The notes beneath the pieces are model-generated. The model was given only the letters and a program-made list of their open reading frames with translations, was not told where the DNA came from and ran no database searches. Both the position numbers and the translations under genes were made by a program. A DNA stretch of 64,000 nucleotides from positions 23,714 to 87,713 of the forward strand of contig JAXDKS010000012.1 of the NCBI GenBank assembly GCA_034666985.1, in the 5' to 3' direction. Positions within the stretch are counted from its first letter, which is position 1, and the number at the start of each line of letters is the position of its first letter. This document shows, one piece after another, positions 3,224-35,659 of this stretch. The stretch is from Acidobacteriota bacterium (lineage in GTDB: Bacteria > Acidobacteriota > Thermoanaerobaculia > Multivoradales > UBA5704).

Positions 3224-3233
3224 GAGACCCGCA

Positions 3234-3641
3234 ATGCCCAGGACTCGCACCGGACACACGGTTGGCGACTGGTTGGAGCTGGCCGATCTGGTCACTCCGG
3301 AGACCATCGCGGGCTCGCCGCTCCTCGAGCGGACGCACGGCGAGCTCCAGGGGTTCGTGGAGGAGATCCGGAAGCTGCTGGTCCAGCGGGACTTCTACGA
3401 GGCCCGCAAGCAGGAGACGACCCAGCGCATCCAGGAGATCCTGCCGGAAGGCCGTCGCACGGCCACTTTCCTGCGGCGGGCCTTGAAGCAGCATTTCGGT
3501 CCTGACAACGAGAAACTGGCCGCCTTCGGCATCCAGCCCTTCCGTGGGCAGAAACGCTCGCGCAAGGACGGATCCGCGTCGTCGCCCGAAACGCAGGCCC
3601 AGAGCGGCGGAGATCCTCGCTCCGGCGGGGACACGGAGTAA
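3234..3641 (+). CDS. hypothetical protein (135 aa)
   Basis: Internal ATG with AGGAGA SD 6 nt upstream. The start overlaps the stop region of the upstream gene (coupling). No recognisable domain. Confidence 0.45.
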   Translation: MPRTRTGHTVGDWLELADLVTPETIAGSPLLERTHGELQGFVEEIRKLLVQRDFYEARKQETTQRIQEILPEGRRTATFLRRALKQHFGPDNEKLAAFGIQPFRGQKRSRKDGSASSPETQAQSGGDPRSGGDTE

Positions 3642-3699
3642 AGCCTGCGCTTTCGCCGCAGATCCCGGGCCGACTGTTCCTTCCTGCGACTCTGAGACA

Positions 3700-4060
3700 G
3701 CGGCGGGAGAGATGCCTCATATCTCCAGATATGGCGCATATCCAGAGGGAAAATCATTTTCCCTTTGGCTATGGCGTATATCCGGAGGGAAAACCACTTT
3801 CCCTCCAGATATGAGCCATATCTGGAGACAACGCCTCATATGAAAAGGGAAAATCGTTTTCCCTTCAGATATGGCCTGTATCCGCGGGGAAAACGATTTT
3901 CCCTCGGGATATGGCCCATATCTGTGGATATGCGGCGTTGGAGAAAGGGAAAATGATTTTCCCTGCGGATATGAGGTGTCTTGGCGGATATGGGCTGCGT
4001 TTCCGGGCGATATCCCGTCTCTCGGGATGAGAACCCACGTTCCGGGATGACGCCTTATCG
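3700..4060. repeat. AT-rich intergenic island with ordered array of two alternating palindromes (GATATG-N3-CATATC; GGGAAAAT-N-ATTTTCCC), unit ~40/60 bp
   Basis: Perfect 15-bp palindromes GATATGgcgCATATC (3728-3742), GATATGagcCATATC (3808-3822) and GATATGgccCATATC (3908-3922). Degenerate copies lie near 3768 and 3868. Perfect 17-bp palindromes gggaaaatNattttccc sit at 3747, 3847, 3886 and 3947, with a variant at 3787. Local GC is ~48% against ~70% for the flanks. The region lies between convergent 3' ends. Confidence 0.85.
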
Positions 4061-4362
4061 GGCGGGATTTCTCTCGAATCCTCGAAGATGAGCCGTCTTT
4101 CCGGAACACGCGCCGACTTTCATGGCGCTCGCGTGTATCACCGAATCCTCTCGGTGAGGGAAGAATCTGCGGCGAAGGCGGTAGAGACGTCCCTGGTCCT
4201 GAACGATACCGGTTCGGCCACCACGGGGACCGCGGGACGTCTCCGCGGCGGCGATACCGGTTCCGATCACCCCACCGGTTGGCGGGCTCGCATCATCCCC
4301 TCGGCGACGTCCAGCGATGATGGATCTCGGGCCGCATCGGCCGCCTCAGAGACTGGAGCGGC

Positions 4363-5229
4363 TCAAGGAGCCGCCTGATGCCGCAAAGCATGGACGTAGT
4401 TGATGGGCGCGTGATCGGCAAGGTCGCGAACGGCGGCGGTGCCTCGTCTCCAGGAATTGTGCAGGAGATATTCCTCGCGTGCCTTCCAACCATCCTCATG
4501 AATGAAACCCTCGGTGGCCCCTGTCTTGATCTCCCCCAACCGGTCGATGTATACGGGGTTCGCCTCGTTCACGTGCACATAGCCCAGGTGGACGAAGGGC
4601 GGAGGCAGGTGGGTGACGATATCGCAGCAATCCACATATCGCGAGACGTCAAATCCCGACAGGGTCTCGACGAAGTCGGAATCTCCAACTCTCGGGGCTC
4701 CGAAGATGACGAGCTTCGCAGGGTTTCTCAAACTCGCCGCGAGAATGCTCAGAGCCGCGCCCAGGCTGTGGCCGGTCAACAGCAGCCGTCCTGGATGCGC
4801 CTGGAGCCAGCGGTCCAGATCCGCCCAGATGAGATCCAAATCGGTCTTGAATCCTTCGTGAACCTTGCCTCCTTTGGGCCAGGGGCGCGCGAAGGCCTCC
4901 AGGTCATGCGCCATGTCGGTGAAATCTTCCTGCTCCGTCCCCCGAAACGCAACCACGGCGGTTGCTGAGTGGGGATTCCATGCAGCCAAGGCTTGTGACC
5001 CGTCCCTGTTGAAATAGGCGACTTCGTCAAATCCGACAGATTGCAGAGCACTGCGAGTCTCGCGCTCCTCCTCTGGGAAGCTTTCACATCGCTTGTATGC
5101 TAGCAAAGAACATTCCGCACACAGCAGATCGTCCGGAAGATTCTCCGTGCGAGGAAAGAAACCGGTTGTCAGGTGTGGACGAAAGAGCGCGTCGCGGGTA
5201 GCGTCATAGAGAATTGTGCGCGTGCTCAT
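4363..5229 (-). CDS. class 3 (fungal-type) lipase / alpha-beta hydrolase
   Basis: GHSLGAA nucleophile elbow. ATG with AAGGAG SD. GC is markedly lower than the genome, consistent with horizontal acquisition. Confidence 0.8.
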   Translation of the reverse strand: MSTRTILYDATRDALFRPHLTTGFFPRTENLPDDLLCAECSLLAYKRCESFPEEERETRSALQSVGFDEVAYFNRDGSQALAAWNPHSATAVVAFRGTEQEDFTDMAHDLEAFARPWPKGGKVHEGFKTDLDLIWADLDRWLQAHPGRLLLTGHSLGAALSILAASLRNPAKLVIFGAPRVGDSDFVETLSGFDVSRYVDCCDIVTHLPPPFVHLGYVHVNEANPVYIDRLGEIKTGATEGFIHEDGWKAREEYLLHNSWRRGTAAVRDLADHAPINYVHALRHQAAP

Positions 5230-5282
5230 AGCAGCTCCTTTCTTTTCGGATCAGTTTGCCCAAGCAAACTACAAGCGGGGGT

Positions 5283-5411
5283 TCAGCTGACCTGTTTCGA
5301 TTCGCTGTCGATGTAGATCTTCTCCTTATAGATGAGCCAGATCCCGCCGACCACCATGATCAGGCCGGCGAAGGAGCTCAGGTAGTAGAGTGGCAGGGCG
5401 TTGGTATCCAT
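5283..5411 (-). CDS. possible small membrane protein (42 aa) upstream of lipase
   Basis: MDTNALPLYYLSSFAGLIMVVGGIWLIYKEK... gives a single hydrophobic helix, same strand as the lipase. Weak RBS. Confidence 0.3.
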   Translation of the reverse strand: MDTNALPLYYLSSFAGLIMVVGGIWLIYKEKIYIDSESKQVS

Positions 5412-5571
5412 CTCGGTCCCCTTCTGGTAGAGATCGCTCTCTGTGCGAGGCGTCTCTGGAGGGGGTGTTCGCGTCCGGGAGCGGGTTTCTGACAGGGGTG
5501 AGTGAAGTGAAGGAACGCCGGCCGATGGAGCCACATCAGCCGGCGTTGAGGAGAGGGTTGCTCAGCGAGCT

Positions 5572-7752
5572 CTAGGGATCGACGTAGACCGGGCTCTGTA
5601 TCGATTTCTCAGACGTAATGCCCTTGGTGTCTGTGACCAGCAGAGTGAAATCCACACTCGCCGTGCAACCGGCGAGCGTTGTCCGTCCTTCGATGGGGCC
5701 GAAGCCCAGCTTCTTCATAGGCGCGGGACTAGACGTCTCTGCTGCATGCCGCGCATCGCTGAGAAGGACTTGGAACTGAGTGGTCAGGTCCAGCCTTTCC
5801 TTGATCGGCGAGTCTGTGCCGCACTCGATGACGAGGATGGCGCTTGAGATCGTCGTATGGGCTGCCAGTCCCAGCCACTCGGAATCGATGGATGCGGCAA
5901 GGCTGTAGGGCTTTGGATCGTCCGTGTCATCGCCTGACAGCTCCTCCAGGGAGAGGGCGAGAGATGCAAGCTGACTCGCTGAGAAGCCGGGAGCGATGGT
6001 GCAGGGTGGACACGGAGTTTCCGGCGGCTGGGGCAGGGACAAGCTGGGAGCGTTCATGTCTGGCCGCGTTTCTATCGGGCACCTGGTCGTGCCGGAGACC
6101 GGGAGCCCGGTCACGTAGACCTGGGTTTTCGGGTCGCAGGAGGGCTTGGGAACGATCGGGATGACGGCGACGGGGGAAGACCGTCGGGGACGGATCCGCG
6201 AAAGGTCGGCCGCCGGGCATTCCTGAAGTTGGCAGTTGATGGATTCCACGGCAGGGCAGCGCCCTTCCGCCGTCCCACAGAGTCTGAGGACGGTCCGGCA
6301 GAGCGACAGCCGCTTCAGGTGGGGCGGCCCGATCAGCCAGGAGAGGGGCTTCCAGACATAGTAAGTTGCCTTGTCGGGAAGAGCTTCCGCCGCATGAGCC
6401 ATCCGCTTCATGACCTGAGCTGGCGCCAAGTCCGGCCGCAGGTGCCAGACCACGGCGGCGGTGGAAGAGGCGACGACGGCGGCAACCGAGCTTCCCGTGT
6501 AGATCTGGGTGGGCTCCACGCCTCCGGCCCCGTCTGACGTCCTGGCCACTGCGTGATCGGCGTAGGCGACGCGCCATGGCATGCCGTCGGGGCGGGCATT
6601 GGGCAGCGGCAGGCCTTGCCAGTCGACTCCCCCCACGGCATAAGCAACCTTCTTGCTGAAAAGGCTGGAAAGCCAGGAGCGCGACTCCCAGCCCGCCGGC
6701 AAGAAGGGCTCTTGGTGCTCATGTGCCCCTGACCGGTTGCCGGCGGCAGTGATCACCAGGACACCGAGGTCATGGGCATAGTCCAGGGCGTCGTAGACCG
6801 CCTTGGCCGAGGCTTCGAGCTCCTCCCTCTTTTTCGCGTCGGGGTCTTGGTATTCGCCGTCCCAACCGATGGAGAGGTTCAGGATGAGCTTCGCTTCGGG
6901 CTGGGAATTCTGCCAGTGCTCGATCTCCGCCAGGATGGCGATCGCGAGGTCGCCGATCCGCCCCTGGTGGCCACCGGTGTCACTTCCGGGATCGTCCGGT
7001 GACGCTGAATGGTAATCATCGTGACGCAGCGCGAGCCGGGTCGCGATGTGAATGGGACAGCCCTGAGGCGAGGTGTCATGGCCGCAGACGATCTCGTTGG
7101 CCAGGTGCGCCATCCCGTAGCCATGCCAGGAGCTCGGAGCCGGGTCCTTGGCGGGCGGCCCTTCGCCGGTGGGATGCGTATCGACGAAGACGAGGCGCAC
7201 CGTCGGCTTTTGTGCAGGACCGAGCCGAACTCTTCCGACCTGATCGAGGAAATGCTCGGCGAGCGGCTCCCAGATCTGATCCCCGAGGGGGCCCAGATCG
7301 GTGGGAGCGCTGGGAGTCAGAGCCATCTGGTCAGGCTCGGCCTTCGAGAGCCCGGCCGGCATTCGAAACTCCTGCCCTTGACCTTCATCCGTGTAGACAC
7401 AGAACCGGTCCAAGCCATGCTTGCGGAACAGGGCGTCTCTCTTCGCCTGCCTCTCTCTGTCGATCAGGGTCCGCTTCGGGGGGGCGCCGTACTGATCGCA
7501 GGCTCTCTTGGCGCCGTCCTCGGCATGAGCGACCGCAAGCTCGAACAGGGATTCCGTTCTCCAGCCGGGCACTGCGGGGCAGGAAGAACCCTTCTTGAGC
7601 ACCCCGATCCAGCGGCCTGGAGTGGGGACAGGTCCGGTCGGCTGTTCAGAGGGCTCTTTGACCTTTGGCTTATAGGAGGCGTCCGCGGCAGCTCCTGCGG
7701 CCGTCCAACTCATCGCCAATCCCAAAAGAACGCAAAGAATCCTGGATCGCAT
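5572..7752 (-). CDS. secreted subtilisin-like serine peptidase (S8 family) with Cys-rich C-terminal extension
   Basis: Catalytic D (VFVDTHPTG), H (HGYGMAH), N (AAGN) and S (GSSVAAVVAS) are present. Signal peptide MRSRILCVLLGLAMSWTAAGAAADA. ATG at 7752 with AAGGAGGA SD. Confidence 0.8.
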   Translation of the reverse strand: MRSRILCVLLGLAMSWTAAGAAADASYKPKVKEPSEQPTGPVPTPGRWIGVLKKGSSCPAVPGWRTESLFELAVAHAEDGAKRACDQYGAPPKRTLIDRERQAKRDALFRKHGLDRFCVYTDEGQGQEFRMPAGLSKAEPDQMALTPSAPTDLGPLGDQIWEPLAEHFLDQVGRVRLGPAQKPTVRLVFVDTHPTGEGPPAKDPAPSSWHGYGMAHLANEIVCGHDTSPQGCPIHIATRLALRHDDYHSASPDDPGSDTGGHQGRIGDLAIAILAEIEHWQNSQPEAKLILNLSIGWDGEYQDPDAKKREELEASAKAVYDALDYAHDLGVLVITAAGNRSGAHEHQEPFLPAGWESRSWLSSLFSKKVAYAVGGVDWQGLPLPNARPDGMPWRVAYADHAVARTSDGAGGVEPTQIYTGSSVAAVVASSTAAVVWHLRPDLAPAQVMKRMAHAAEALPDKATYYVWKPLSWLIGPPHLKRLSLCRTVLRLCGTAEGRCPAVESINCQLQECPAADLSRIRPRRSSPVAVIPIVPKPSCDPKTQVYVTGLPVSGTTRCPIETRPDMNAPSLSLPQPPETPCPPCTIAPGFSASQLASLALSLEELSGDDTDDPKPYSLAASIDSEWLGLAAHTTISSAILVIECGTDSPIKERLDLTTQFQVLLSDARHAAETSSPAPMKKLGFGPIEGRTTLAGCTASVDFTLLVTDTKGITSEKSIQSPVYVDP

Positions 7753-7885
7753 GGTGTTCCTCCTTGATGCCGCAGGCAGCGGTGCCGCTCTTGACCGGCA
7801 CGGTCCTGGAGGCCCCTCGTGCCGCGGCTTTCTCCTTAGGCTTTCGCGGCCGGCTGTTCGTTTCTGACGAACGGCAAGCAAGGAA

Positions 7886-10672
7886 TCAAGGAATAAGGAG
7901 GCGGAAGCTCGCCCAGGCAGCCTTGGGGGACGGATCTTTCTTGCGGCAGGCCAGTTGCGCCCGCCGCAACTGGTGTGGGAGATCCTCCCCTGGCTGCCAG
8001 TGGCGGTACAGCTCGTCCATCAACTCGCTGGCGGAAGAATCGGGGACCAACTGCCTCGCGGCGACGACTTCCTTGGAGCCGGCCAGCAGGAAGGCGTTGG
8101 CGAGGCCGACTCCCTCGCCGGGGGCTTCCTCTGAGGTGCGGCCGGCGTCGCAGGCGGAGAGGACGATCGAAGCGGGCGTGTGGGGGGACAGGGCCAGGAC
8201 GTCGCTCAGCGTCAGGCGGGATTGGTCCGCCAGCGGCAACTCGCTGCTCCAGCCGGCGAAGCCGCCGAAGGTCCCATGGCCGGCATAATGAAAGAAGCTC
8301 GCTCTGGCCAGCGCATCGCTAACCTGCTTGGACTTGGCATCGTTGCCCTTTAAAGACGTCAGTGTCCATGAGCCCGGCCAACGCTTGATGGCGGCGGCCA
8401 CCGTCTCCGCTTCAATGTCGGCCGTACGGAGGTCTCTCGTGGGGTTGGAGACCACGAGGGCTTCGTTCTGGCCGCTCCGGGGTATGGAGGCGAGGCGCAT
8501 CGACAGGTCGAGGCTGTAGGCCACCAGATGGGTCGCGAGCAGTGGCTGACCGTGGGTGAAAGGCAGGGCATGGAAGTCCACAGACCTCAGAGGGCCGTAA
8601 GGTAGGACCTTCACGCTCGTGGCGCTCGCGATGGCTGATTGGAAGGCCAGAGACGGCGTGAGAAGGATCCGCGCGAGTTGATCCAGAGGAGCCGCCGAGA
8701 AGTTCTCGGGAAGCTCGATCCTCTCGACCACGATTCCCCGCTCCGTGGCCGCGAAGGCCGCCCACTGCTTTCCGGGCAAGGGGTGATAGGCCAGGATGAC
8801 CTCGCCGGGCGCTGGGGGGGCGAGCGTTCCCTCGCCGTTGCCGCCGAGAGCATCCAGAGTGCCCAGAGCGCCGTCGAGAGCTTCCTGAGCGCCCTTGAGC
8901 CTCTCGGCCTCCTCTTTCAGAGCGCGCTCTTTCTCGCTGACGGCCAACTGCCAGCGCTTCGCGGCGTCGCTTTCGACGGTCTGGCGAATGGCGTTGTACC
9001 TCGACAAAGATTCAAACCAGGTCTTCTGTTCTGTTTCATCTAAATGGCTCAGGCGGTCGCGGACCGCGAGCTGGCGCAGCAACCGCGAGCGAGACCTGCG
9101 AGCCAGGTCGAAGGCACTTTGCCACTGATCCCCTTCGAGCAGCAGCTTGAGATAAAGGCGGGTCGCTGCCTCCTGATAGGCGAAGAAGGTGTCGCGCCCC
9201 TGATGAACCGGAATGTGTCGGCTCTGCTCTGCGATCTGGCGCTCCGCCTTGGCGAGGGCGTCGATGGCCTCCTGCCGCTGTTTGAGGGCGATGTGAGCGT
9301 TGGCCCTGCCGAGCAGCGCCTGGAGGAGGCCCGCGGGCGACGCGGCGCGCTCAGATCTCTTCTCGAGCTTCTCGTAGAGGCCGCGAGCGAGCTCCGGATG
9401 GCCTTCGTGAAGCGCCGCCCGCGCCGCGAGATCGTCCTGCCAGAGCAGCTCGAGCAGATTCGAATGCTCGGCCAGAGCCTGGGCTCGAGCGAGCTGCCGG
9501 CGCGCCTCGGACCATTGGCCCTGTTGCTGATAAGCCAATGCCAGATTTTGGTGAGCGTTGAGCCGTTGTTCTGACGAGCATCCATTCTGCTCGAATTCGG
9601 CCAAGGCCTGCTGGACGACCGGGACCGGGTTTTCGGCGGTATTGCCTGCCTCGTGCTCCATGAGCTGAAACCAGCCCACATTGGTCCAAAGGGTCCCCAA
9701 CGCGCAACTGGATTTGAGGTCAGGGTCGGCCTGCAGTTTGGCGTACAGCGTGGACGCGTCTTGCAAGCGGCCAAGCTGCTGATATACGAGAGCCAGCATC
9801 TGGCCGGCCTCCCTTTTCAGCTTGGGATTTCCAAACCGCTGCGCGAGATCGATTGTTTCCTGGAGCCGCTTCAGAGCTACGGCGTAGTTGCTGGTCTTCT
9901 GAGCCAGTACGCCCTGGTAGAAGGTCACATTGAACCTGTCGTCGGCCGGCGCTTTCGGAGGGGGCCGGAGCGTCTGGAGAATCTGTCCCGCATCGGCGAA
10001 GCTCCCCTGTTCAATGTAGATTCCTGCGAGCCAGGTTGCTTGCTTGGCTACGCCGCTCCAGCGGTTCTCGCTGCGATTCGCGGAGATTCCTTGATTCAGG
10101 TACAGCTCCTCCTTTTCTCTGTCTCCGGCGAGGTGGGCCAGAATGGCGAGCCGCGACAAGGTGAAGCTCTGCTCTTTGCGTGGAGCCGATCTCTGGATTT
10201 GCTCCAACAGGCTCAGGGCCTCGACTCTCTTGCCGGAGCTGATCAGCTTTTGGACCTCGTCCCACCAGGACGGCTGCTCAGGCTCGGCCAGACGAAGGAA
10301 CCAGCTCGGGCCGGGGCTGCCGTCCGGCGAGAAGGCCTCGACCGTCAGCCGGTCGGCCGGCTTGGGAATGGAGAGCAGGTAGCGTCTGCCGCCGCTCACC
10401 TTCTCTTCTTTCTTTGGCTCCAGGAGCCCCCCGCCGGCGCGGAGCTCCACTTTCCGATCCGGGGGAGTGGTCCTCACCCAGAGGGTGAGCTGGCGCTCGG
10501 GAACGAGGGAGCAGACCTGGTCCGGCAGATAGAAGGCCCAGCATCCGGCATACTCGACTTCCAGGACCGGTGGGGCAGGAGCCGGTTTGCCACAAGCCAC
10601 GAGGAGCCCGGCGAGCGCCCCCAGGCAGAGAGACGCGCGAAGGAGAAGGCCCTGGGCTGGGCTCAGGGTCAT
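7886..10672 (-). CDS. lipoprotein with TPR repeats and C-terminal CHAT (caspase-like His/Cys) domain
   Basis: Lipobox LVAC. Multiple TPR-like helical repeats. The C-terminus has HYAGHG...LSACDAG, a His-Cys dyad typical of CHAT. Start ATGA overlaps the anti-sigma stop. Confidence 0.75.
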   Translation of the reverse strand: MTLSPAQGLLLRASLCLGALAGLLVACGKPAPAPPVLEVEYAGCWAFYLPDQVCSLVPERQLTLWVRTTPPDRKVELRAGGGLLEPKKEEKVSGGRRYLLSIPKPADRLTVEAFSPDGSPGPSWFLRLAEPEQPSWWDEVQKLISSGKRVEALSLLEQIQRSAPRKEQSFTLSRLAILAHLAGDREKEELYLNQGISANRSENRWSGVAKQATWLAGIYIEQGSFADAGQILQTLRPPPKAPADDRFNVTFYQGVLAQKTSNYAVALKRLQETIDLAQRFGNPKLKREAGQMLALVYQQLGRLQDASTLYAKLQADPDLKSSCALGTLWTNVGWFQLMEHEAGNTAENPVPVVQQALAEFEQNGCSSEQRLNAHQNLALAYQQQGQWSEARRQLARAQALAEHSNLLELLWQDDLAARAALHEGHPELARGLYEKLEKRSERAASPAGLLQALLGRANAHIALKQRQEAIDALAKAERQIAEQSRHIPVHQGRDTFFAYQEAATRLYLKLLLEGDQWQSAFDLARRSRSRLLRQLAVRDRLSHLDETEQKTWFESLSRYNAIRQTVESDAAKRWQLAVSEKERALKEEAERLKGAQEALDGALGTLDALGGNGEGTLAPPAPGEVILAYHPLPGKQWAAFAATERGIVVERIELPENFSAAPLDQLARILLTPSLAFQSAIASATSVKVLPYGPLRSVDFHALPFTHGQPLLATHLVAYSLDLSMRLASIPRSGQNEALVVSNPTRDLRTADIEAETVAAAIKRWPGSWTLTSLKGNDAKSKQVSDALARASFFHYAGHGTFGGFAGWSSELPLADQSRLTLSDVLALSPHTPASIVLSACDAGRTSEEAPGEGVGLANAFLLAGSKEVVAARQLVPDSSASELMDELYRHWQPGEDLPHQLRRAQLACRKKDPSPKAAWASFRLLIP

Positions 10673-11562
10673 GGGGCGGCCGGCTGACCCTCGGCGCGAA
10701 AGTCCACGCAGGCCACCTGCCAGGGGCCAGGAGATGGTTTCTCCTGCTTGAGAGCATCGCAGAGGGTCTGCCAGGATTCGTTTTGGGGGCGGTTGGCCCG
10801 CAGCCGCGTCTGGACCTCCTTGGCCTCTGGAAGGCTGTTCCGGGCGACGACGGTCCAGAAGATCCAGTCTCCCGGCGGAACCTTGAGGTCGTCCTCACCC
10901 ATCGTGGCGGTGAGGCGGACACTGCCGGTTTTTCCGGGTTCAAACTTGTCTTCCAGTCCCAAAGGCCTCAAATCCTCCCAGCCGGCGCTGGGGCTGAGGA
11001 AAGCTCTCGCCTTGACTGCTCCGGGGTGCTCGAGGGGTTGCTTCGGATTGATCTCCAGGATGAAAGGCGAGCCAGAGGCAAAGATCCGCTTCTCGTTCGG
11101 CGTCGCGGCCTCGCTCCCTCGGTTCGTCTTGAAGCCGCCGTCCAGACTGGCCTCATAGCTGGGTAGCGGCAGCGCCGGCCCCCGCACCAGAAAGAACACC
11201 CCCGCCGCCACCACCGCCGCGGCTCCAATCCAGACCTCCATCCTGCGGGTTACCCGTCGAAAGGGCAGCACGCGGGGCCTCTCCTCCCGAGGCTCGGGGG
11301 CTGGCGCCTCGCTCGTCCGCTCCGCGTTGATCGCGTTCACCACCCGCGCCTGGAAGTCGGCGCCGAGAGGACGGAACGCCTCATAGGCTTCCCGGGCTTC
11401 GGGAGAGGATTCGGCGAGGGCCTTCAGCTCTGTTTCTTCCTCAGCGGTCAAGGTTCCGGCCGCCAGGCGATCCCAGCGCTCGTCGAGGCGGGCCTTCTCG
11501 GTCTCCTCTTCGCGCCGCGCCAGATCCGCCAGCTCTTTCAAAAGTAGATCATCCATATTCAT
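10669..11562 (-). CDS. anti-sigma factor (single-pass membrane protein)
   Basis: The gene sits immediately downstream of the ECF sigma with a 6-bp gap. It has a charged N-terminal domain, one TM helix (WIGAAAVVAAGVFFLV) and a periplasmic domain. Confidence 0.55.
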   Translation of the reverse strand: MNMDDLLLKELADLARREEETEKARLDERWDRLAAGTLTAEEETELKALAESSPEAREAYEAFRPLGADFQARVVNAINAERTSEAPAPEPREERPRVLPFRRVTRRMEVWIGAAAVVAAGVFFLVRGPALPLPSYEASLDGGFKTNRGSEAATPNEKRIFASGSPFILEINPKQPLEHPGAVKARAFLSPSAGWEDLRPLGLEDKFEPGKTGSVRLTATMGEDDLKVPPGDWIFWTVVARNSLPEAKEVQTRLRANRPQNESWQTLCDALKQEKPSPGPWQVACVDFRAEGQPAAP

Positions 11563-11568
11563 CCCCCT

Positions 11569-12207
11569 CTATGTCTTTCGCACCGGCGCCCGGTTTCCTG
11601 ACATCTCGGCCAGCAGCTTCTGGGCCACACGGCGGAGACGGCTGCGCCAGGCATAGACCGCATCGGCGGAGAGGCCGCTCGCCGCTTGGACCTCCGTCTG
11701 CGACAGTTCCTGGACGAAGAGGAGCTGGAACAGACGCCGGCCCAGGGGGCTCAGCTCTTCGCGCAGACGGTCGAGAAGGAGGGAGAGGTGCTCGCGGCTG
11801 GCGGTGACTTCCTCCGGATCGCTGTCCGGGGCCGCCTTGTCGAGCTCGTCTTCGGCAAAGGCGGAGTCCTCCTTCCAGGGATTCCGCCGGCCGCTACGGA
11901 GGAAGGAGAGCACTTGGCGCTCCGCCACCAAGCCCACGAAGTTTTCGAGCGAGAGGCCCCGCTCGGATTGCCAGGAGCGCAGGATGTGGCCGTCCCGGGT
12001 GAAGAGCGCCAGGAAGACTTCCTGGCTCTGATCCTCCACCTCCTGGCGCAGGTCGCGCCCGCTGGCGAGGAGGGAGCGGCGGGCGAGGAGCGTCCGCGCT
12101 ACGCGGGCCTGGATCACGGGCGTCAGCACGGCCACCAGCCGGCTCAGGGCGGTCTGATCTCCGTCCAGGGCTCGCCATACCAGACCGGCGGTGTCCTCAG
12201 CATTCAT
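11569..12207 (-). CDS. ECF (sigma-70 family, group IV) RNA polymerase sigma factor
   Basis: Region 2 and region 4 helices (...LSQTEVQAASGLSADAVYAWRSRLRRVAQKL). Size 212 aa. Position upstream of the anti-sigma gene. Confidence 0.75.
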   Translation of the reverse strand: MNAEDTAGLVWRALDGDQTALSRLVAVLTPVIQARVARTLLARRSLLASGRDLRQEVEDQSQEVFLALFTRDGHILRSWQSERGLSLENFVGLVAERQVLSFLRSGRRNPWKEDSAFAEDELDKAAPDSDPEEVTASREHLSLLLDRLREELSPLGRRLFQLLFVQELSQTEVQAASGLSADAVYAWRSRLRRVAQKLLAEMSGNRAPVRKT

Positions 12208-18751: not shown

Positions 18752-20707
18752 CTACTTCCGCCGGCGCCGGCGGCGCTTCCGTTTCCGGGGTCCGGTGCCG
18801 CTGCCTGCAACCCCCTCGGCTCCTTCAGCGCCTTCGGTGGCCTCCTCGGGGCCGTCCTCGAAATCGTCGTCCGGCCCTTCGTCGTCCCCCTCGTCGAAGA
18901 AGGGCTCTCCGGGCTCGCCGGCCGCTTCGCGCTCTTCGACGACCAGGGAAACGGCAGCCTGCTCTCCCGCTTCGACCTCCTGGGTGCCGTTGCCGTTCTC
19001 GCCGGGAGCCTTCCGCTTGCGCTTGCGGCCACCGCGACGGCGGCGCTTGCGCTTGCTGAGGGAGCCCGCTTCGCCGGCCGTCCCGGCCTCGCCCTCCTCG
19101 CGGTCTCCAGCCTCGGCGGCCTCGCCGGTCTCGAAGTCGTCCTCTTCCTCGTCCTCCTCGTCCTCGGGCAGGGCGAGGTCCCAGGCCTGGAGGGTGACGG
19201 GCACGGGCTTCTGCTTCACGGGATGGCGCGGGGGCTTCTCCCGCTTCTGCCACTCGATCCGCTCGTCGGGACGGTGGAGGCCGGCCGTGGCGATGATCTC
19301 GATCCGGATGTCGAACTCCTCCTCGATCGAGGCCAGCTCCTGCCGGTAGTGGTTCTGGAGGGCGTCGGCCAGCTCCGGGTGGAGGCCGATCTTCACCCCC
19401 TGGATGGCGCCGGCGGCGGCGCGGGCTTCGATGCGCCGCAACAGCGACAGGCTGACCATCTCCTCGCTCGCCAGACGCCCCGAGCCGCTGCAGGTGGGGC
19501 AGGGGCGATGGGTGCGGAGCTGAAGGGCCTGCTGGATACGCTGGCGGTTGATCTCCAGCAGGCCGTTGGCGCTGATGCGCCCCACGCTGGAGCGCGCCTT
19601 GTCCGCCTTCATGGCGTCTTTGACCGCCTTCTCGACCCGGCGCTGGTTCTTCGAGGCGCGCATGTCGATGAAGTCGACGACGACGATGCCGCCGAGGTCG
19701 CGCAGCCGGAGCTGGCGGGCCACCTCGCCGGCGGCTTCGAGATTGGTGTGGAGGGCGGTCTCCTCCTGGGTAGCGGCGCGGGTCGAGCGGCCGGAGTTGA
19801 CGTCGATGGCGGTCAGCGCCTCGGTGGCGTCGATGACGATCGAGCCGCCGCTCTGCAGCTCCACCCGGCGCTCGTAGATGCGGTCGATCTGCGGCTCGAG
19901 GTCGTAGCGGCTGAAGAGCGGCAACCGGTCCGAGTAGCGGATCAGGCGCGTCTTCGAGCGCGGCATGAAGGCCATGAGGTAGGCCTCGGCCTTCTGGAAC
20001 GCCTCGTCGTCGTCGATCAGGACCTCCTCGATGCTGGTATCCAGGTAGTCCCGCAGCGCCTGGAGGATGAGGTCCTGGTCGGTGTACAGGAGCCGTGTGC
20101 CCTTGCCCTGGATGGCCGCCGCCTGCACCCGTTTCCACAGCCGCAGCAGGGCGGCGAGGTCGCGGGCCAGCGTCGTCTTGGTCTGGTCCAGGGCGTTGGT
20201 GCGCAGGATGACGCCGCAGCCGTCGGGGAGGTCGAGGCCGTTGGCCATCCCCTTGAGCTTCTTGCGCGTGTCCTCGTCCTCGACCTTGCGCGACACGCCG
20301 CGGGTGTCGTCGAAGGGAGTCAGCACGAGGTAGCGGCCGGCGAGGGAGAGGCTGGTGGTGAGGGCCGCCCCCTTGGTGCCCATGGGGTCCTTGGCGACCT
20401 GGACGACGATGGGCTTGCCCTTCTCCAGCACCTCGTCGATGCGGGGGTGGCCGTGATGGGGCTGCTTGTAGAAGGCCTCGGGGACGACGTCCTGGATGGC
20501 CAGGAAGCCGTGCCGCTCGACGCCGTAGTCGATGAACGCCGCATTCAGGCTGGGCTGGATACTGGCGATGACGCCGCGGTAGATGTTGCCGCGGGTCAGG
20601 TCCGACTCGGCGACGTCCACCTTGTAGTTTTCCAGGACGTTCCCCTGGACGATGGCGATACGCAGCTCTTCCGGCCGCTGCGCGTTGATCAGCATTCTGC
20701 GAGTCAA
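18752..20707 (-). CDS. rne: ribonuclease E/G family endoribonuclease (short RNase E with Arg-rich/acidic tail)
   Basis: The N-terminus M(T)RRMLINAQRPEELRIAIV matches the E. coli RNase E MKRMLINATQQEELRVALV. S1 and DNase-I-like catalytic domains are present. The C-terminus has an acidic/poly-Arg tail. Start is TTG at 20707 with a GGAGA SD, or ATG at 20695. Confidence 0.85.
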   Translation of the reverse strand: MTRRMLINAQRPEELRIAIVQGNVLENYKVDVAESDLTRGNIYRGVIASIQPSLNAAFIDYGVERHGFLAIQDVVPEAFYKQPHHGHPRIDEVLEKGKPIVVQVAKDPMGTKGAALTTSLSLAGRYLVLTPFDDTRGVSRKVEDEDTRKKLKGMANGLDLPDGCGVILRTNALDQTKTTLARDLAALLRLWKRVQAAAIQGKGTRLLYTDQDLILQALRDYLDTSIEEVLIDDDEAFQKAEAYLMAFMPRSKTRLIRYSDRLPLFSRYDLEPQIDRIYERRVELQSGGSIVIDATEALTAIDVNSGRSTRAATQEETALHTNLEAAGEVARQLRLRDLGGIVVVDFIDMRASKNQRRVEKAVKDAMKADKARSSVGRISANGLLEINRQRIQQALQLRTHRPCPTCSGSGRLASEEMVSLSLLRRIEARAAAGAIQGVKIGLHPELADALQNHYRQELASIEEEFDIRIEIIATAGLHRPDERIEWQKREKPPRHPVKQKPVPVTLQAWDLALPEDEEDEEEDDFETGEAAEAGDREEGEAGTAGEAGSLSKRKRRRRGGRKRKRKAPGENGNGTQEVEAGEQAAVSLVVEEREAAGEPGEPFFDEGDDEGPDDDFEDGPEEATEGAEGAEGVAGSGTGPRKRKRRRRRRK

Positions 20708-21106
20708 GTTGTCTCCGATTGGCTAGAGCATGAAAGGGCAGGGGTAGGGGACGCGGAGTGGGGTAGACATCACTTGCGGGAGCGTATTCTGACGCAGGCC
20801 CTCGAATTCTGCAACCCCGGGGGCCAAAAGACGCCTAGAGCCACGACGCGGGGGGCCATTCCCCGATCTCCGCACCGGCCGCGGCCGCCAGCAGCCCGAA
20901 GGCGCGGACCATGCGCTGGAACGACCGGCAGCTCCGGTGAGCGGCGGCGAGGTCGAAGAGGGCGGTGAGGGCGGGCTGGTCCAGGGTTTCCCCATAGGAT
21001 CTGTTTTCCATGCAGGCTTCCAGTTTGGCTTTGGCTCCCCGCATCGACTCGGGTGCAGGATGGGACACCGCATCGCCGCGAATCCCGCGTTGGCCCCTTA
21101 GAGACT
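20708..21106 (-). promoter_or_regulatory. long (~400 nt) leader/promoter region upstream of rne
   Basis: This is the non-coding stretch between the rne start and the upstream module. rne genes classically carry long structured autoregulatory 5' UTRs. Only spurious overlapping ORFs fall here. Confidence 0.4.
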
Positions 21107-21454
21107 CTATCGCCCCAAGAACCAAGCCTCGTATTCGTGATAAGGAATGACGACCTCGCACGGGATGGGTCCAGCTTCGGACTGAGCCCAGGCCGTGACC
21201 TTCGGTGCAAGCTCGCGGGGGCAGTCTCTGTCTCCATCGAATAGGATCAGGATTCCGTCACAGCCGTTCACTCTCCTCATGGCTGCTCGAACCGCTTTGC
21301 GGAGCGGCCCTTCAGTTGCCAAGTCCGAACGGTGCCGGCGTATTGGGTGATCGAAGCTGAGGCCAAAGGTCCCGCATTCTCGTTGGAACCTTCGGAGCAG
21401 CTCAGGGAGCGCTCTTTCGTCCCCCTGCCCTTCGACGATGAGTTGAAATATCAA
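21107..21454 (-). CDS. small TOPRIM-like (DUF4276-like) protein, putative nuclease partner of upstream ATPase
   Basis: The N-terminal MIFQLIVEGQGDE supplies a conserved Glu on strand 1, and ILILFDGDRD supplies DxD, giving the TOPRIM Glu-DxD signature. 115 aa. TTG start overlaps the ATPase stop (TTGA). Lower GC. Confidence 0.6.
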   Translation of the reverse strand: MIFQLIVEGQGDERALPELLRRFQRECGTFGLSFDHPIRRHRSDLATEGPLRKAVRAAMRRVNGCDGILILFDGDRDCPRELAPKVTAWAQSEAGPIPCEVVIPYHEYEAWFLGR

Positions 21455-22656
21455 GACAGAGGGCCGAAAAGATCGAGCTCTCCGCTGAACCTTGGCGAAG
21501 AATCGATATCGAGGAGGTTGGAGCGCAACATCTCTCCCGCTCCCATCAGATGTTCCTGAAGGGCCTCTCGCGGGGCTCTTCCGATAAGCGAGACGCGTGA
21601 GGCACCGTCATCCCAATACACCACACGCAAGTTTCGGTCCTCAATCCAACTCGCTGAGTCGAGCAGCTCGGGGCTGTGAGTCGTGATCACCGCCTGCGAG
21701 CAGCGGCTGATATTCCTGATCAAATCCAGAATGATTCCCAGGGCGCCAGGATGAATCGTGGCTTCAGGATCTTCGAGGGCGATCAGCGACGGAGTAGGTC
21801 TCTGGTACGCTGCGAGCAGCAGACCCAGGGTGCGCAGAGCGCCGTCTGACATGCTGAGCGCGCTCAGGGTGATCGGCTCTTTCGTTCTCCCCTCTTCCAC
21901 GAATTCCAGCCAAAGCTTGTCCCCGACCTCAACGGGGTGCACTTCCGTCCTATAGGGCAACAAGACGCTCATGAATTCGTTGATCTCCGAGAAGTCCTCC
22001 GGGAATTCACTCCTGAGAGACAGGAGCACGCTGGCCGCATTGCTGCCATCAGCTTTCAGCCTGGAGTTTCCATTCGGTTCCTGCATCTGGCGCAGCTTGG
22101 CGGGCTCGATCGAGTAAGCCAGCATCGCTGCGATCGTACGAACGACGGGAGCGAATGCCTTATGGCCGCCCACGAGTGGCAGGACCAGGGAGCTGGAATG
22201 CGTCAGCGGAATCAAATTTGCGAAGCTTGAGTCCGAAACTGAGCCGTGGATTGGATCTTCGGTGCGAGCAAAATAGATCCGGCCCTCTGAGCCCATGATG
22301 ACGCACTGCTCCCGCGTCACTTGGAACCCCCTCTGTGGCAAGGCCTGAACCTCGAATCCATACTGTGCCGACGAGATCTCCTCGGAAGGAATCTCAAGCT
22401 CCAAGGCAAGCCCGAAGCCGGAGGCGCCGGCGGCGGAAGGGGGCCGGTGACAGAGAGCGGAAATTCCTCCTCTGCGAGTGATGACCGAGTTGAGCGGGGA
22501 GGTCATGGCCTCGGCCATGAACGCCAATGCGTCGACCAGGTTGCTTTTTCCCGCCCCGTTCCGCCCCACAAAGAAAGTCGGGTTATCGAGCTCGATCCGT
22601 GCCGAGTCGAAACTGCGGAATCCCTTGAGGGTCAGACTACGTACGACAGGTCTCAC
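21451..22656 (-). CDS. ABC-type / AAA_21-like ATPase (OLD/SMC-like)
   Basis: Walker A GRNGAGKSN, Walker B LIALEDPE, Q-loop and H-loop (ITTHSPELL). GTG start at 22656 with a GGAGGA SD. About 55% GC against ~70% for the genome. Confidence 0.7.
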   Translation of the reverse strand: MRPVVRSLTLKGFRSFDSARIELDNPTFFVGRNGAGKSNLVDALAFMAEAMTSPLNSVITRRGGISALCHRPPSAAGASGFGLALELEIPSEEISSAQYGFEVQALPQRGFQVTREQCVIMGSEGRIYFARTEDPIHGSVSDSSFANLIPLTHSSSLVLPLVGGHKAFAPVVRTIAAMLAYSIEPAKLRQMQEPNGNSRLKADGSNAASVLLSLRSEFPEDFSEINEFMSVLLPYRTEVHPVEVGDKLWLEFVEEGRTKEPITLSALSMSDGALRTLGLLLAAYQRPTPSLIALEDPEATIHPGALGIILDLIRNISRCSQAVITTHSPELLDSASWIEDRNLRVVYWDDGASRVSLIGRAPREALQEHLMGAGEMLRSNLLDIDSSPRFSGELDLFGPLS

Positions 22657-22761
22657 AGATTGTCCTCCAAATTCGCAGTATAGCGTCCGGATGCTTGTTC
22701 TGCCACCTTTTGCTAGACTCCCCCCAACCGTCCGCCTCCGGGCCGGCGGCCCAGGAGCCTC

Positions 22762-24318
22762 ATGAAGCACTACGACGTCATCATCCTCGGCGGCGCGTTC
22801 AGCGGCGCTTCGGCGGCCATCCTGCTGCGGCGGGACCGGCCGGACCTCTCCGTGCTCATCGTCGAGAAGGCCGTGGCGTTCGACGCCAAGGTGGGGGAGG
22901 CGACGACGGAGATGTCGGGGATGTTCCTCACCCGGCGGCTCGCCCAGTGGCAGCACCTGGAGCGGGAGCACCTGCCCAAGGAGGGGCTGCGCTACTGGTG
23001 GCACAACGAGCACGTCCACTGCCACGCCGAGGCGAGCGAGGCCGGGGCCTTCCAGCGCAGCACCACCCCGTCCTTCCAGCTCCGCCGCGACACGCTGGAC
23101 GAGCACCTGCTGGCCACGGCGGTGGCGGAGGGGGCCGAGCTCCTGCGGCCGGTCCGGGTGCGGGAGGTGGAGCTGGGGGAATTCGATCACCGGGTGACCC
23201 TGGAGAGAGAGGGGGGCGAAGAGGAGGCCGTCGCCTGCCGCTGGGTGCTGGATGCCACCGGGCGGGCCACCTTCCTCGGCAAGCGCCTGGGCCTCATCGA
23301 GCGCAACCGCGAGCACCCCACGGCCGCCATCTGGTGCCGCTGGGAAGGGGTACGCCACCTCGACGACGTCGCCGCCCGGGGCCCTCTCGCCTTCTCCCGT
23401 GGCAACGTCACCTCCCGCCGGCTCGCCACCAATCACTACATGGGGTTCGGCTACTGGGTCTGGTTCATCCCCCTGGGCAACGGCGAGACCTCGATCGGGG
23501 TGGTCTTCGACATGCGCCTGGTGGATCTCGACCGGGGGAAGAACCTGGCGAGCGACTACGTGGCCTTCCTGAAGGCGATCCCCGCCGCGGCCGAGCTGCT
23601 GGAGGGGGCGCAGATGAAGGCCGAGGATCTGCGGACCTTCTCCAATCTGGCCTACGTCACCCGCCAGTACATGGGGAGCGGCTGGGCCCTGATGGGCGAC
23701 GCGGCGGCGTTCCTCGATCCCTACTACTCGCCGGGGCTGGACCACGCCTCGTTCTCCGTCGAGGCCACGGTGGAGATCGTCAAGGCCCAGACGGCGGGCG
23801 AGCTGGCGGGGGAGGCCCTGGCGGCCCGCATCGCCGAGCACAACGCGACCTTCCTGCGCTCGTACCACCGCTTCTTCCAGGCCGTCTATCAGGACAAGTA
23901 TTACTACATGGGCGAGCACGACCTGCTGTCGGCCTCGTTCCTCATCGACACGGCGCAGTACTACATCTTCGTGGTCATTCCTGCCTACCGGCTGTTCGGG
24001 AAGTTCCACTGGATGCCGGTCCTCGGCCCCAAGCCGGCGTTCTTCAGCTATCACATGATGCGGATCTACAACCGGCGCTTCAAGGCGATCGCGCTCGCCC
24101 GCCGCGCCGCAGGCGAGGCGGGCCGGCGCAACCACGGCCGGCGGGTGAAGGTCCTCTTCGACCTCAAGGTCGCCCCCTTCCACATGGCTGCCCGGGGCGT
24201 CAAGCTCTGGGCCTGGGCGGAGCTGGACAACGTCCGGCTGTCGCTGAAGCGGCTGTTCGGGCGTCGGCCAGCGGCGGCCCCGGCAGAGATCCCGAAGATC
24301 CCAGTCAAAGAGAGCTGA
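22762..24318 (+). CDS. flavin-dependent halogenase-family (tryptophan-halogenase-like) FAD oxidoreductase
   Basis: N-terminal dinucleotide-binding VIILGGAFSGA. The diagnostic WxWxIP motif appears as YWVWFIPL. C-terminal FLDPYYSPG (Fx.Px.Sx.G-like). AGGAG SD. Confidence 0.65.
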   Translation: MKHYDVIILGGAFSGASAAILLRRDRPDLSVLIVEKAVAFDAKVGEATTEMSGMFLTRRLAQWQHLEREHLPKEGLRYWWHNEHVHCHAEASEAGAFQRSTTPSFQLRRDTLDEHLLATAVAEGAELLRPVRVREVELGEFDHRVTLEREGGEEEAVACRWVLDATGRATFLGKRLGLIERNREHPTAAIWCRWEGVRHLDDVAARGPLAFSRGNVTSRRLATNHYMGFGYWVWFIPLGNGETSIGVVFDMRLVDLDRGKNLASDYVAFLKAIPAAAELLEGAQMKAEDLRTFSNLAYVTRQYMGSGWALMGDAAAFLDPYYSPGLDHASFSVEATVEIVKAQTAGELAGEALAARIAEHNATFLRSYHRFFQAVYQDKYYYMGEHDLLSASFLIDTAQYYIFVVIPAYRLFGKFHWMPVLGPKPAFFSYHMMRIYNRRFKAIALARRAAGEAGRRNHGRRVKVLFDLKVAPFHMAARGVKLWAWAELDNVRLSLKRLFGRRPAAAPAEIPKIPVKES

Positions 24319-32001: not shown

Positions 32002-32313
32002 TTGACCTACACCGTTGAAGAGTTGCGGGAGCGGCTGGACGAAATCCTGGATCAGGTCCGTGCGGGTGAGCGCGTCGAAATCCTGGAGAACGGCCGGGCG
32101 ATCGCCAGGATTCAGGGGGTCCGGAGCACGGCTGCCGGGGATGGCGACCCGATCGAGGACACCCTACGTCAACTCGAAGAGGAGGGGATCATCGGCCGCG
32201 CGGCCGAGCCTCGGCCCAGTCTTGAGGATATACACCGCGAGCTCGAGGAAGTATGGCGCGACAATCCTCCGAAGCCAGGAGGTTTAGCGCGGTTCCTGGA
32301 ATCCCGAAGGTGA
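32002..32313 (+). CDS. Phd/YefM-family antitoxin
   Basis: MTYTVEELRERLDEILDQVRAGERVEI is a typical Phd N-terminus. TTG start with a GGAGG SD. Lower GC. Confidence 0.65.
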   Translation: MTYTVEELRERLDEILDQVRAGERVEILENGRAIARIQGVRSTAAGDGDPIEDTLRQLEEEGIIGRAAEPRPSLEDIHRELEEVWRDNPPKPGGLARFLESRR

Positions 32314-32696
32314 AGATCGGGTACGTTGACAGTTCTTGTCTGATCTCCATCGCGCTCGGTGAGCCAGGCTCACGGGAGTTGGAGTTCCGTCTTTCACGAA
32401 TTGAAAAATTCTTCTCCTCCAATCTCCTTGAAGCAGAGTTCAGGGCAGCTTTGGCCAGGGAAGGAACCCGGGGAAGAGTTCGGAACCTCCTTGCCTGGGT
32501 CAACTGGATCTATCCCCGTCGCCGGCTGAAACCGGAAATCGATCAGATCCTCGGAGTGGGTATATTGAAGGGAGCGGATCTCTGGCATCTCGCCTGCGCT
32601 CTCTTTATGCGCCCCCAAATTGAAGTCACCCACTTCCTGACGCTCGACGACAAGCAGTCCGCAATCGCCAAGTCACTCGGCTTCAGCGTCCTCTGA
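32310..32696 (+). CDS. PIN-domain toxin (VapC-like)
   Basis: GTGA start/stop overlap with the antitoxin. IGYVDSSCLI (first Asp), EAEF and TLDD acidic residues. 128 aa. Confidence 0.65.
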   Translation: MKIGYVDSSCLISIALGEPGSRELEFRLSRIEKFFSSNLLEAEFRAALAREGTRGRVRNLLAWVNWIYPRRRLKPEIDQILGVGILKGADLWHLACALFMRPQIEVTHFLTLDDKQSAIAKSLGFSVL

Positions 32697-34821: not shown

Positions 34822-35256
34822 CTATCCGACCTCATCCGGAGGATGGAGCCCTGCATCCAGCAAGATTCGTCGCAGGTTGACGATGCCGATCCTATTGAGC
34901 TGCAACTTCTCGATCGTCGCCCTGCCGGTCGATGTCACACCGACCATCATCGTGTAATCAGCATTCCATACGAAGTGATCGCCCCATCGATCCCGGCGCG
35001 GGTGGAACAGGGAGACTCTTTCACCATTGACAGGATCCTCGCCCTCCACACTGATGAATTTCCTATTGTTACAACCCTGACAGGACAGCGCCAGGTTGGA
35101 GAGGTCGTGGCTCCGGCCTCGAACCAGCTGAATAATGTGTTCGATAGAAAAGGTGTCTGGGGAGTACTGCGCGTGGCACTTACAATACTCACAGCAGCCA
35201 CGAGCGCGCTGCGAGACCGTTTCCTTGTCGCGCGCCGTTGGGCGACGACTACTCAT
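34822..35256 (-). CDS. HNH endonuclease
   Basis: CEYCKC...H..N...N..LSCQGCNNRK is an HNH zinc-finger core. About 50% GC, i.e. foreign composition. Confidence 0.75.
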   Translation of the reverse strand: MSSRRPTARDKETVSQRARGCCEYCKCHAQYSPDTFSIEHIIQLVRGRSHDLSNLALSCQGCNNRKFISVEGEDPVNGERVSLFHPRRDRWGDHFVWNADYTMMVGVTSTGRATIEKLQLNRIGIVNLRRILLDAGLHPPDEVG

Positions 35257-35659
35257 AGGGCGGTGATTTGATACCGAGGTCGTCCATCAAAGCATCGACG
35301 GACGTCTGCCGCAGACGTGCGAGCTGAATGACGCTCTCCATGCGCTTAACGTTCATCTCTTCCATCTGGTCTGACAATGCGATGAGCTCGGCCTGCTCCT
35401 GTAGCGTCAAGGTCTCGGCCCGGCGCTTTGCCTTGAGGGCTGTGTAGCGCTGCCAGGTCTTGCTGGAGAACCCGCGGTTGATGGCCTGCAACAGTGCTGC
35501 CTCATCTGCGGGCAGTCTGGGTGCAGCGATCTGTCGTGCAGCCAGCCGTTCGCGCAGAGTACGGAGGATGTACCCCTGGGCGTCGAGCCCCTGCTTCGCC
35601 GCCTCTTGGCGAAGTGCGGACTCGAGGTCCGGGGTGATTTCGAGGGTGAGAGCCGCCAT
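35249..35659 (-). CDS. hypothetical protein, RHH/ParD-like N-terminus, overlapping HNH gene start
   Basis: MAALTLEITPDLESALRQEAAKQGLDAQGYILRTLRERL resembles a ribbon-helix-helix. 8-bp overlap with the HNH start. Confidence 0.45.
   Translation of the reverse strand: MAALTLEITPDLESALRQEAAKQGLDAQGYILRTLRERLAARQIAAPRLPADEAALLQAINRGFSSKTWQRYTALKAKRRAETLTLQEQAELIALSDQMEEMNVKRMESVIQLARLRQTSVDALMDDLGIKSPPYE

Follow-up and report, generated by a model that had tools for sequence, protein, structure and literature searches.

A predicted HEC-01 ATPase-nuclease cassette with a frameshifted DUF4276 gene between rne and a FAD-enzyme gene of an Acidobacteriota bacterium

A small ATPase gene and a very short TOPRIM-like open reading frame (ORF), lying between rne and a flavin adenine dinucleotide (FAD)/halogenase-like gene, raise the question of whether they form a defense module with an unusually small nuclease. 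The pair is found in a 64,000-nt stretch of an Acidobacteriota bacterium (assembly GCA_034666985.1, contig JAXDKS010000012.1, positions 23,714 to 87,713 of the forward strand), which we call the window and number from its first letter. An earlier note, made from the letters alone, had read the pair as an OLD/PARIS/AbiL-class module in a horizontally inserted islet, with a 115-residue TOPRIM protein as the partner of the ATPase. We consider it very likely that the pair is a two-gene HEC-01 cassette in an rne/FAD insertion hotspot, in which an ABC ATPase is coupled to a 206-residue DUF4276 TOPRIM nuclease whose gene is frameshifted in this sequence. The features of the cassette are collected in Table 1.

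Table 1. Features of the HEC-01 cassette and its surroundings in the window
Feature	Position	Strand	Basis or detail
HEC-01A, ABC-type (AAA_21/AAA_15/SMC_N) ATPase, intact, 401 aa	21451..22656	-	PADLOC and Pfam profiles
HEC-01B N-terminal segment, codons 1-114	21114..21454	-	TOPRIM core E8, D73-x-D75, D77, E107/E109
HEC-01B C-terminal segment, codons 115-206 and stop	20835..21113	-	-1 frame relative to the N-terminal segment; helical domain
TTGA overlap, HEC-01B TTG start on HEC-01A TGA stop (predicted translational coupling)	21451..21454	-	sequence reading
1-nt deletion site (frameshift)	21113..21114	-	window TTGGG-GCG versus L001 TTGGGCGCG
Shine-Dalgarno GGAGGA, 6 nt 5' of the ATPase GTG start	22663..22668	-	sequence reading
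Candidate sigma-70-like promoter GTGGCA-18-TATACT upstream of the ATPase gene	22677..22706	-	consensus scan, pattern match only
Inserted cassette, ~1.9 kb, flanked by the rne leader on one side and, on the other, by the conserved TGCTAGACT motif that lies upstream of the FAD/halogenase-like gene	~20825..22700		

The DUF4276 gene, its fold, and its frameshift

The small ORF of the pair occupies 21107..21454 (-), where 115 codons run from a TTG start to a premature TAG at 21107-21109. Its start on the ATPase stop, which the earlier note had taken for translational coupling, was found as described, and an identical 4-nt overlap occurs in the related loci L001, L013-L016, L018, L020, and L021. The TOPRIM Glu...DxD signature was also present as noted: the product opens (M)IFQLIVEGQGDE and holds VEGQGDE (E8) and FDGDRD (D73/D75/D77). 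Scored alone against Pfam DUF4276 (PF14103), the 115-residue product reached 30.9 bits, barely over the cut-off, and matched positions 1-109 of 192.

The unusual shortness of this protein, however, did not withstand comparison with its family. An ORF in the -1 frame at 20835..21161 carries on the family sequence (...AIESLRGQRGIR...CRSFQRMVRAFGLL...WPP..W), and tblastn with the joined sequence placed residues 1-114 in one frame and residues 112-206 in the other (frames -1 and -3). In the DNA alignment, TTGGG-GCGATA in the window stands opposite TTGGGCGCGATT in L001, the closest intact relative, and restoring one base gives a 206-aa ORF. The protein reconstructed in this way matched DUF4276 with 56.9 bits (cut-off, 30.2; E value, 4.4e-15) over positions 1-189 of 192 and the PADLOC profile PDLC04196 at 1.7e-61 (residues 4-189, profile positions 5-191 of 197). 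A search with reconstructed HEC-01B gave 280 homologues; of the 120 listed, nearly all were 204-219 aa long and covered 98-100% of it at 53-71% identity, and intact homologues of 205-211 aa span 100% of it. The junction EYEAWFLG/AIESLRG was colinear in an alignment of 40 sequences (39 homologues aligned). Fifteen residues 3' of the frameshift are invariant in this alignment, and all are kept in the out-of-frame segment of the window; S118, L119, R120, P135, E136, Y154, Q160, R177-S178-F179, and W200-P201-P202 are invariant there. These comparisons indicate that the 115-residue ORF is the front part of a normal-length DUF4276 gene of 206 codons that a 1-nt deletion has split. The lower bound of the extent first assigned to the module (21107-22656) halves it. 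Two 148-aa entries, P0019 and P0026, were considered as further short forms and rejected; their DNA encodes intact 206-aa ORFs with a TTG/TTGA start, and judging from that DNA their recorded lengths are gene-calling artefacts.

The AlphaFold2 model of reconstructed HEC-01B (predicted local distance difference test score, 93.9; predicted template modeling score, 0.91) shows an alpha/beta core, with strands at residues 2-7, 67-71, and 99-102 and helices between them, followed by a helical domain at ~109-192. The best four Foldseek matches were all C-terminal regions of OLD proteins (E values of 3e-3 to 9e-3, template modeling scores of 0.39-0.46), and the structural alignment to the OLD catalytic region covered 160 of the 206 residues. 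The margins over generic Rossmann-like folds were small, but two methods agree. Across the 40 sequences, E8 and D73 never vary, and D75 and D77 are at least 90% conserved; E8 and the DxD follow model strands 2-7 and 67-71, which fits the TOPRIM signature. The model thus predicts for HEC-01B a TOPRIM fold like the TOPRIM-plus-helical catalytic region of OLD. Previous work placed DUF4276 in the Toprim superfamily (PMC12065111), and HEC-01B was likewise assigned to the TOPRIM superfamily (bioRxiv 10.1101/2024.01.29.577857). The comparison with TOPRIM-clan profiles that the earlier note had proposed for the small protein gave a match to DUF4276, none to DUF4435, and a sub-threshold score for Pfam Toprim. 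A search of solved structures with the DUF4276 alignment profile gave 0 matches at E values of ≤1. In the model, the truncation at residue 114 comes just after the fourth core strand, and the truncated product would retain the metal-binding core while losing the whole conserved helical domain, which corresponds to part of the OLD catalytic region. The nuclease effector as sequenced is probably inactive.

The out-of-frame segment gave a ratio of nonsynonymous to synonymous substitution rates (dN/dS) of 0.12-0.15 against relatives, compared with 0.11 between two intact relatives. Since the out-of-frame half lacks any sign of relaxed selection, the frameshift would be either a very recent mutation or an assembly error. 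The exact ATPase sequence of the window was not in the assembly index, and therefore there was no second assembly of the strain in which to check the frameshift. We give close to an even chance to an assembly or sequencing error, which would leave the organism with an intact and functional HEC-01 pair. The 92 out-of-frame codons are free of stop codons and keep every invariant family residue, their dN/dS is the same as that of intact relatives, and the lesion is one missing base beside a G-run. Moreover, a housekeeping E1 gene is split in L003, another metagenome-assembled genome in the set, indicating that such errors occur in such data. However, what has gone is a C flanked by G's (GGGCGCG to GGGGCG), which is not a plain change in homopolymer length, and each of the five flanking genes (~3,450 codons together) gives one uninterrupted match to relatives. 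The clade also includes a genuine case in which the partner nuclease has been lost (L002/L024).

A real, very recent inactivating mutation is a serious possibility as well, although we lean slightly away from it. The locus would then hold a decaying defense system, in which loss of a costly or autotoxic nuclease is tolerated or favored while the ATPase persists. The sequence as given carries the deletion, HEC-01B has been lost independently beside an intact HEC-01A in L002/L024, and the whole cassette is present or absent between 97%-identical backgrounds; the helical domain that would be lost lies in the part of the protein that aligns with the OLD catalytic region. However, the downstream part shows neither a further lesion nor signs of relaxed selection, so the mutation must be very young if it is real.

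It is very improbable that a -1 ribosomal slip on the G-run still yields small amounts of full-length HEC-01B, which would make expression of a toxic nuclease leaky or regulated. In the sequence TTG GGG CGA TAG, a -1 shift on G_GGG would restore the ancestral frame and amino acids with zero substitutions: once the P-site tRNA-Gly had moved back by one base and paired with GGG again, GCG would be read next and continue the ancestral ...FLG-AIESL.... The CGA codon and the stop come right after the slip site. However, this site does not follow the canonical X_XXY_YYZ heptamer pattern, and a run of four G's is not long enough for transcriptional slippage to be efficient. All intact relatives compared are in frame at the junction (L001 and L003) or by ORF (L013-L016 and L018), so this is not a conserved programmed signal.

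The ATPase gene and the family of the pair

HEC-01A had been described as a 402-residue ATPase with Walker A, Walker B, and H-loop motifs. The motifs are all present, but the protein has 401 residues: Walker A is GRNGAGKS (aa 31-38), the Walker B region is LIALEDPE (aa 291-298; window 21763-21786, -), and the H-loop is TTHS (aa 325-328), with an ABC-type signature-like motif, MSDGALR, at aa 269-275. The Walker B motif reads LEDPE in the window clade (4 sequences, under purifying selection) versus EEPE in other alleles at the site. The canonical Walker B of AAA_21/OLD ATPases is DEPE, and the Asp/Glu order is swapped in LEDPE. The dN/dS of HEC-01A against L001 was 0.20, indicating that the ATPase of the window is under purifying selection.

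The ATPase start at 22656 is matched in the alignment by the starts of homologues (M-[KR]-P-V-[VI]-R-S-L-T-L-K). A 910-aa ORF at 21451..24183 (-), which overlaps the oppositely oriented FAD gene, was rejected as a spurious upstream extension in GC-rich DNA, because the homologues and the Shine-Dalgarno sequence both put the start at 22656. The scan for sigma-70-like promoters gave 1 site versus 0.3 expected, and this candidate lies within the stretch that is absent from relatives with an empty site. The low G+C content noted earlier for the pair was borne out, with 0.59 for the ATPase and 115-codon ORFs versus 0.69 in rne and the FAD gene; at third codon positions, the values were 0.64-0.70 for the cassette ORFs versus 0.93-0.95 for the neighbors.

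The ATPase matched the PADLOC HEC-01A profile PDLC04178 at 7.3e-97 (residues 2-388 of 401, profile positions 6-386 of 399), with weaker PADLOC matches to PDC-M07A, AriA, mad3, NsnB, AbiLi, GajA, and Old. In Pfam, it matched AAA_21 (1.5e-25), AAA_15 (1.2e-16), and also SMC_N, and a profile search of solved structures gave only Walker A-region matches to SMC, Rad50, GajA, and PtuA. Reconstructed HEC-01B matched the HEC-01B models of PADLOC, plus a non-significant match to PDC-M25B (E value, 0.067); no NCBIfam model matched it. As in the HEC-01 operon, the two genes are adjacent and co-oriented and overlap by 4 nt (TTGA). By these profile matches, the pair is a member of PADLOC HEC-01, a catalogued candidate family. 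The main value of the analysis is a correction, as the "minimal TOPRIM" appears to be a frameshift artefact of a pair that existing PADLOC models already detect.

Payne et al. defined HEC-01, short for Hma-embedded candidate 01, as a candidate that combines an ABC ATPase with a TOPRIM protein (bioRxiv 10.1101/2024.01.29.577857). The window cassette resembles it in having an ABC ATPase gene followed by an ~200-aa DUF4276/TOPRIM gene with overlapping stop and start. It differs in lying outside any Hma system, alone between rne and the FAD enzyme gene, in the frameshift of HEC-01B, and in the LEDPE Walker B of the window clade.

As a split ABC ATPase and TOPRIM pair, the cassette does belong to the broad OLD/PARIS/Gabija class to which it had been assigned, but its family is HEC-01 and none of those named earlier. 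PARIS also combines a split AAA_15/AAA_21 ATPase (AriA) with a separate TOPRIM effector, and DUF4276-associated ATPases fall in the same AAA15/21 tree as PARIS ATPases (PMC11464382). However, the PARIS nuclease AriB is a DUF4435 protein and the window effector a DUF4276 protein, and the window ATPase matched the AriA models at 2e-25 and 1.5e-17, far more weakly than HEC-01A. Searches of PADLOC and Pfam gave no AriB or DUF4435 match at E values of ≤1, and PARIS was rejected. AbiL was rejected as well, since the AbiLi match was partial only (1.4e-17, positions 52-247 of 326) and no AbiLii match was found in PADLOC.

OLD nucleases (class 1, P2 Old; class 2, for example, the Burkholderia pseudomallei OLD, PDB 6NK8) are fused ATPase-TOPRIM proteins, whereas the window has two genes, and their sequence identity to the window protein is just ~14-16%. 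The PADLOC Old match was limited to the ATPase N terminus (7e-14), and the Old and GajA matches were limited to Walker A and C-terminal ATPase motifs. With two separate ORFs and no adjoining helicase gene (GajB), the pair was not assigned to OLD or Gabija. The MADS Mad3/Mad4 and Menshen NsnB/NsnC-DUF4276 variants share with the window an AAA_21-type ATPase and a DUF4276-type TOPRIM effector (PMC12065111), and the window ATPase matched mad3 at 4e-21 and NsnB at 1.4e-17 in PADLOC. However, no methyltransferase or other mad or nsn gene adjoins the window pair, the neighbors being rne and the FAD enzyme gene. MADS was rejected with a score of 103 bits against the NCBIfam MAD3 model NF047739, compared with a cut-off of 420.

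The rne-FAD site and the role of the cassette

Comparison of empty-site loci with the window by blastn showed that homology on the rne side ends at or before ~20820-20824 (in some loci at ~20720) and resumes at ~22753-22762. The insert thus reaches from 10 nt past the HEC-01B stop to ~45 nt upstream of the ATPase start. No tRNA and no Rfam family were found in the window, and apart from short matches at chance level, no direct or inverted repeats flank the insert. The ATPase gene occupies this site in at least seven distinct related genomes or contigs, namely, the window, L001 (= L013), L002 (= L024), L003, L014, L016, and L018, and HEC-01B is present in all of these except L002. The gene order is a Tricorn/PD40-like 1064-aa protein, FeS_assembly_P, FAD/Trp_halogenase-like, HEC-01A, HEC-01B, optional ROK and GH44 genes, and RNase E/G. 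Across the same-site genomes, the flank proteins (FAD and rne) are 75-95% identical, the ATPase 40-89%, and HEC-01B 62-92%. At least four divergent allele types occur at the site, with ATPases only 40-63% identical between types. For L016 and the window, the FAD protein is 89% identical and the ATPase just 44%.

Occupancy was surveyed in 66 loci from metagenome contigs with the FAD protein as the anchor. The site was empty in L025/L038, L026, L028, L030, L033, L035, L037, and L070, with the FAD start 145-210 nt from the rne start. It held ROK only in L023, ROK and GH44 without the cassette in L039, and HEC-01 alleles in L022 and L031. In L024, the ATPase is kept and HEC-01B is lost; the intact HEC-01A there (L002/L024, ~9190-9910) has an altered C-terminal tail, and a ROK-family gene abuts the ATPase stop. 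Alternative cargo was a 1472-aa P-loop protein with a PIN_3/HicB-like pair in L027 and Uma2 with an AbiEii/DUF6036-like nucleotidyltransferase in L029. The L027 protein (2059-6966) contains GEPGIGKST, has no Pfam or PADLOC match, and is encoded by DNA of 58.5% G+C; it may be an uncharacterized STAND-like defense gene. L022 and L039 share 97% identical DNA on both flanks, and the former holds the 1.9-kb cassette where the latter holds 478 nt of palindrome-rich sequence. These 478 nt (L039, 6520-7000) contain two copies of a long, GC-rich palindrome (GTAGAGACGCCCCGTGCCGGGGGG... and the inverse), which look like miniature inverted-repeat transposable elements or repetitive extragenic palindromic sequences.

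The ATPase gene has a G+C content of 0.55-0.62 in all alleles at the site. Recent horizontal transfer was therefore dropped as the sole cause of the low G+C content, which all site alleles share and which thus belongs to the cassette pool instead of marking a recent arrival in this genome. The inserted, lower-GC islet first proposed is nevertheless supported by related genomes in which the rne-FAD site is empty or holds other cargo or other alleles. The context survey proposed for detecting a uniform housekeeping setting found the same-site carriers beside core genes, yet occupancy and alleles at the site are variable. Because of the allele divergence, the variable occupancy, and the strain-level presence or absence, the site is not a conserved housekeeping context. 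The comparisons support an accessory islet in an insertion hotspot, the interval from rne to the FAD/halogenase-like gene of Thermoanaerobaculaceae genomes. Distant homologues in L019-L021 and L004-L012 (in the latter, the ATPase and DUF4276 matches alone) have unrelated neighborhoods, always with the ATPase gene followed by the DUF4276 gene, and the 4-nt overlap recurs where gene calls exist (L016, L018, L020, and L021).

The rne/FAD intergenic region is thereby documented as a clean, narrowly bounded Thermoanaerobaculaceae hotspot with empty sites, at least four HEC-01 alleles, and alternative cargo. It provides independent population-genomic support for HEC-01 behaving as an accessory defense cassette, and divergent alleles in near-isogenic flanks could steer specificity experiments on HEC-01.

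By analogy with PARIS, OLD, and Gabija, the ATPase may act as a sensor and regulator that holds or activates the TOPRIM nuclease. On a phage cue, HEC-01B, as a metal-dependent nuclease of TOPRIM fold, would cut nucleic acid, and infection would be aborted or blocked. The analogy is discussed in PMC11464382 and bioRxiv 10.1101/2024.01.29.577857. In the window, the deletion would truncate the product after the TOPRIM core and remove the conserved helical domain.

Several observations weigh against a HEC-01 defense cassette. The two genes are not both intact, as HEC-01B is split into 114 and 92 codons, possibly by assembly error, and the nuclease gene is broken as sequenced. The relative L002/L024 has lost the nuclease gene wholly and kept the ATPase, and the Walker B of the window-clade ATPase is unusual (LEDPE, not DEPE or EEPE). 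Pfam Toprim (PF01751) scored below threshold for HEC-01B (13.1 versus 23.1 bits; E value, 0.11). We know of no biochemical mechanism for any HEC-01. In addition, the experimental record of HEC-01 is sparse and mixed, and one representative failed to protect E. coli K-12 from a subset of the BASEL phages (bioRxiv 10.1101/2024.01.29.577857).

That negative result would also agree with a non-defense role, in which the pair is a housekeeping or selfish module (for example, a RecF/SMC-like repair ATPase plus a nuclease) or an addiction cassette resembling a toxin-antitoxin system. The ATPase also matches SMC_N, RecF, and Rad50 N-terminal profiles, and the pair adjoins conserved core genes in at least seven distinct genomes. 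However, the SMC/RecF matches are limited to the ~50-residue Walker A region, and the pair is dispensable, since many close relatives have an empty site and the cassette is present or absent at the strain level. Allele divergence is far above flank divergence, the other cargo of the hotspot is toxin-antitoxin- or defense-like, and another HEC-01 representative made E. coli B resistant to at least one of the phages T4, T5, and T7 (PMC12881386). We regard a non-defense role as unlikely, although an addiction module may still fit these data.

In two lineages of the allele group to which the window belongs, the ATPase is intact (dN/dS as given above) where the nuclease gene is frameshifted, as in the window, or deleted, as in L002/L024, and this suggested that HEC-01A might work without a cis-encoded TOPRIM protein, either by pairing with an effector from another locus or by serving alone as a sensor or decoy, or else that -1 slippage throttles a toxic nuclease. 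Taken together, we rate these possibilities as quite improbable, and a HEC-01 cassette with an ATPase-coupled DUF4276 nuclease remains the preferred reading.

Other features of the window

A larger stretch of lower G+C content lies at 3500-10700 (0.55-0.61 in 500-nt windows; 0.67-0.78 at third codon positions of the ORFs). It holds genes for a class-3 lipase (4366-5229, -), a subtilase (5575-7881, -), and a TPR-CHAT protein (7889-10672, -) and may be another accessory island. The ORFs at 10669-12207 (-) look like a putative sigma/anti-sigma pair.

The C terminus of rne (18752-19200, -) is an extended tail of low complexity with many acidic, arginine, and lysine residues (EEDEEEDD...RKRKRRRRRRK), and the strong AT skew at these positions is attributed to this RNase E/G tail.

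An ORF with a PIN domain at 32253-32693 (+) has a G+C content of 0.56 and a Pfam PIN match at 1.1e-06, and it probably encodes a VapC-like toxin. At 34825-35256 (-), a low-GC ORF for an HNH endonuclease (Pfam HNH, 4e-11) overlaps the end of a 136-aa ORF at 35252-35659 (-) that has no Pfam match. These two ORFs (34825-35659, -) may form a two-gene accessory module.

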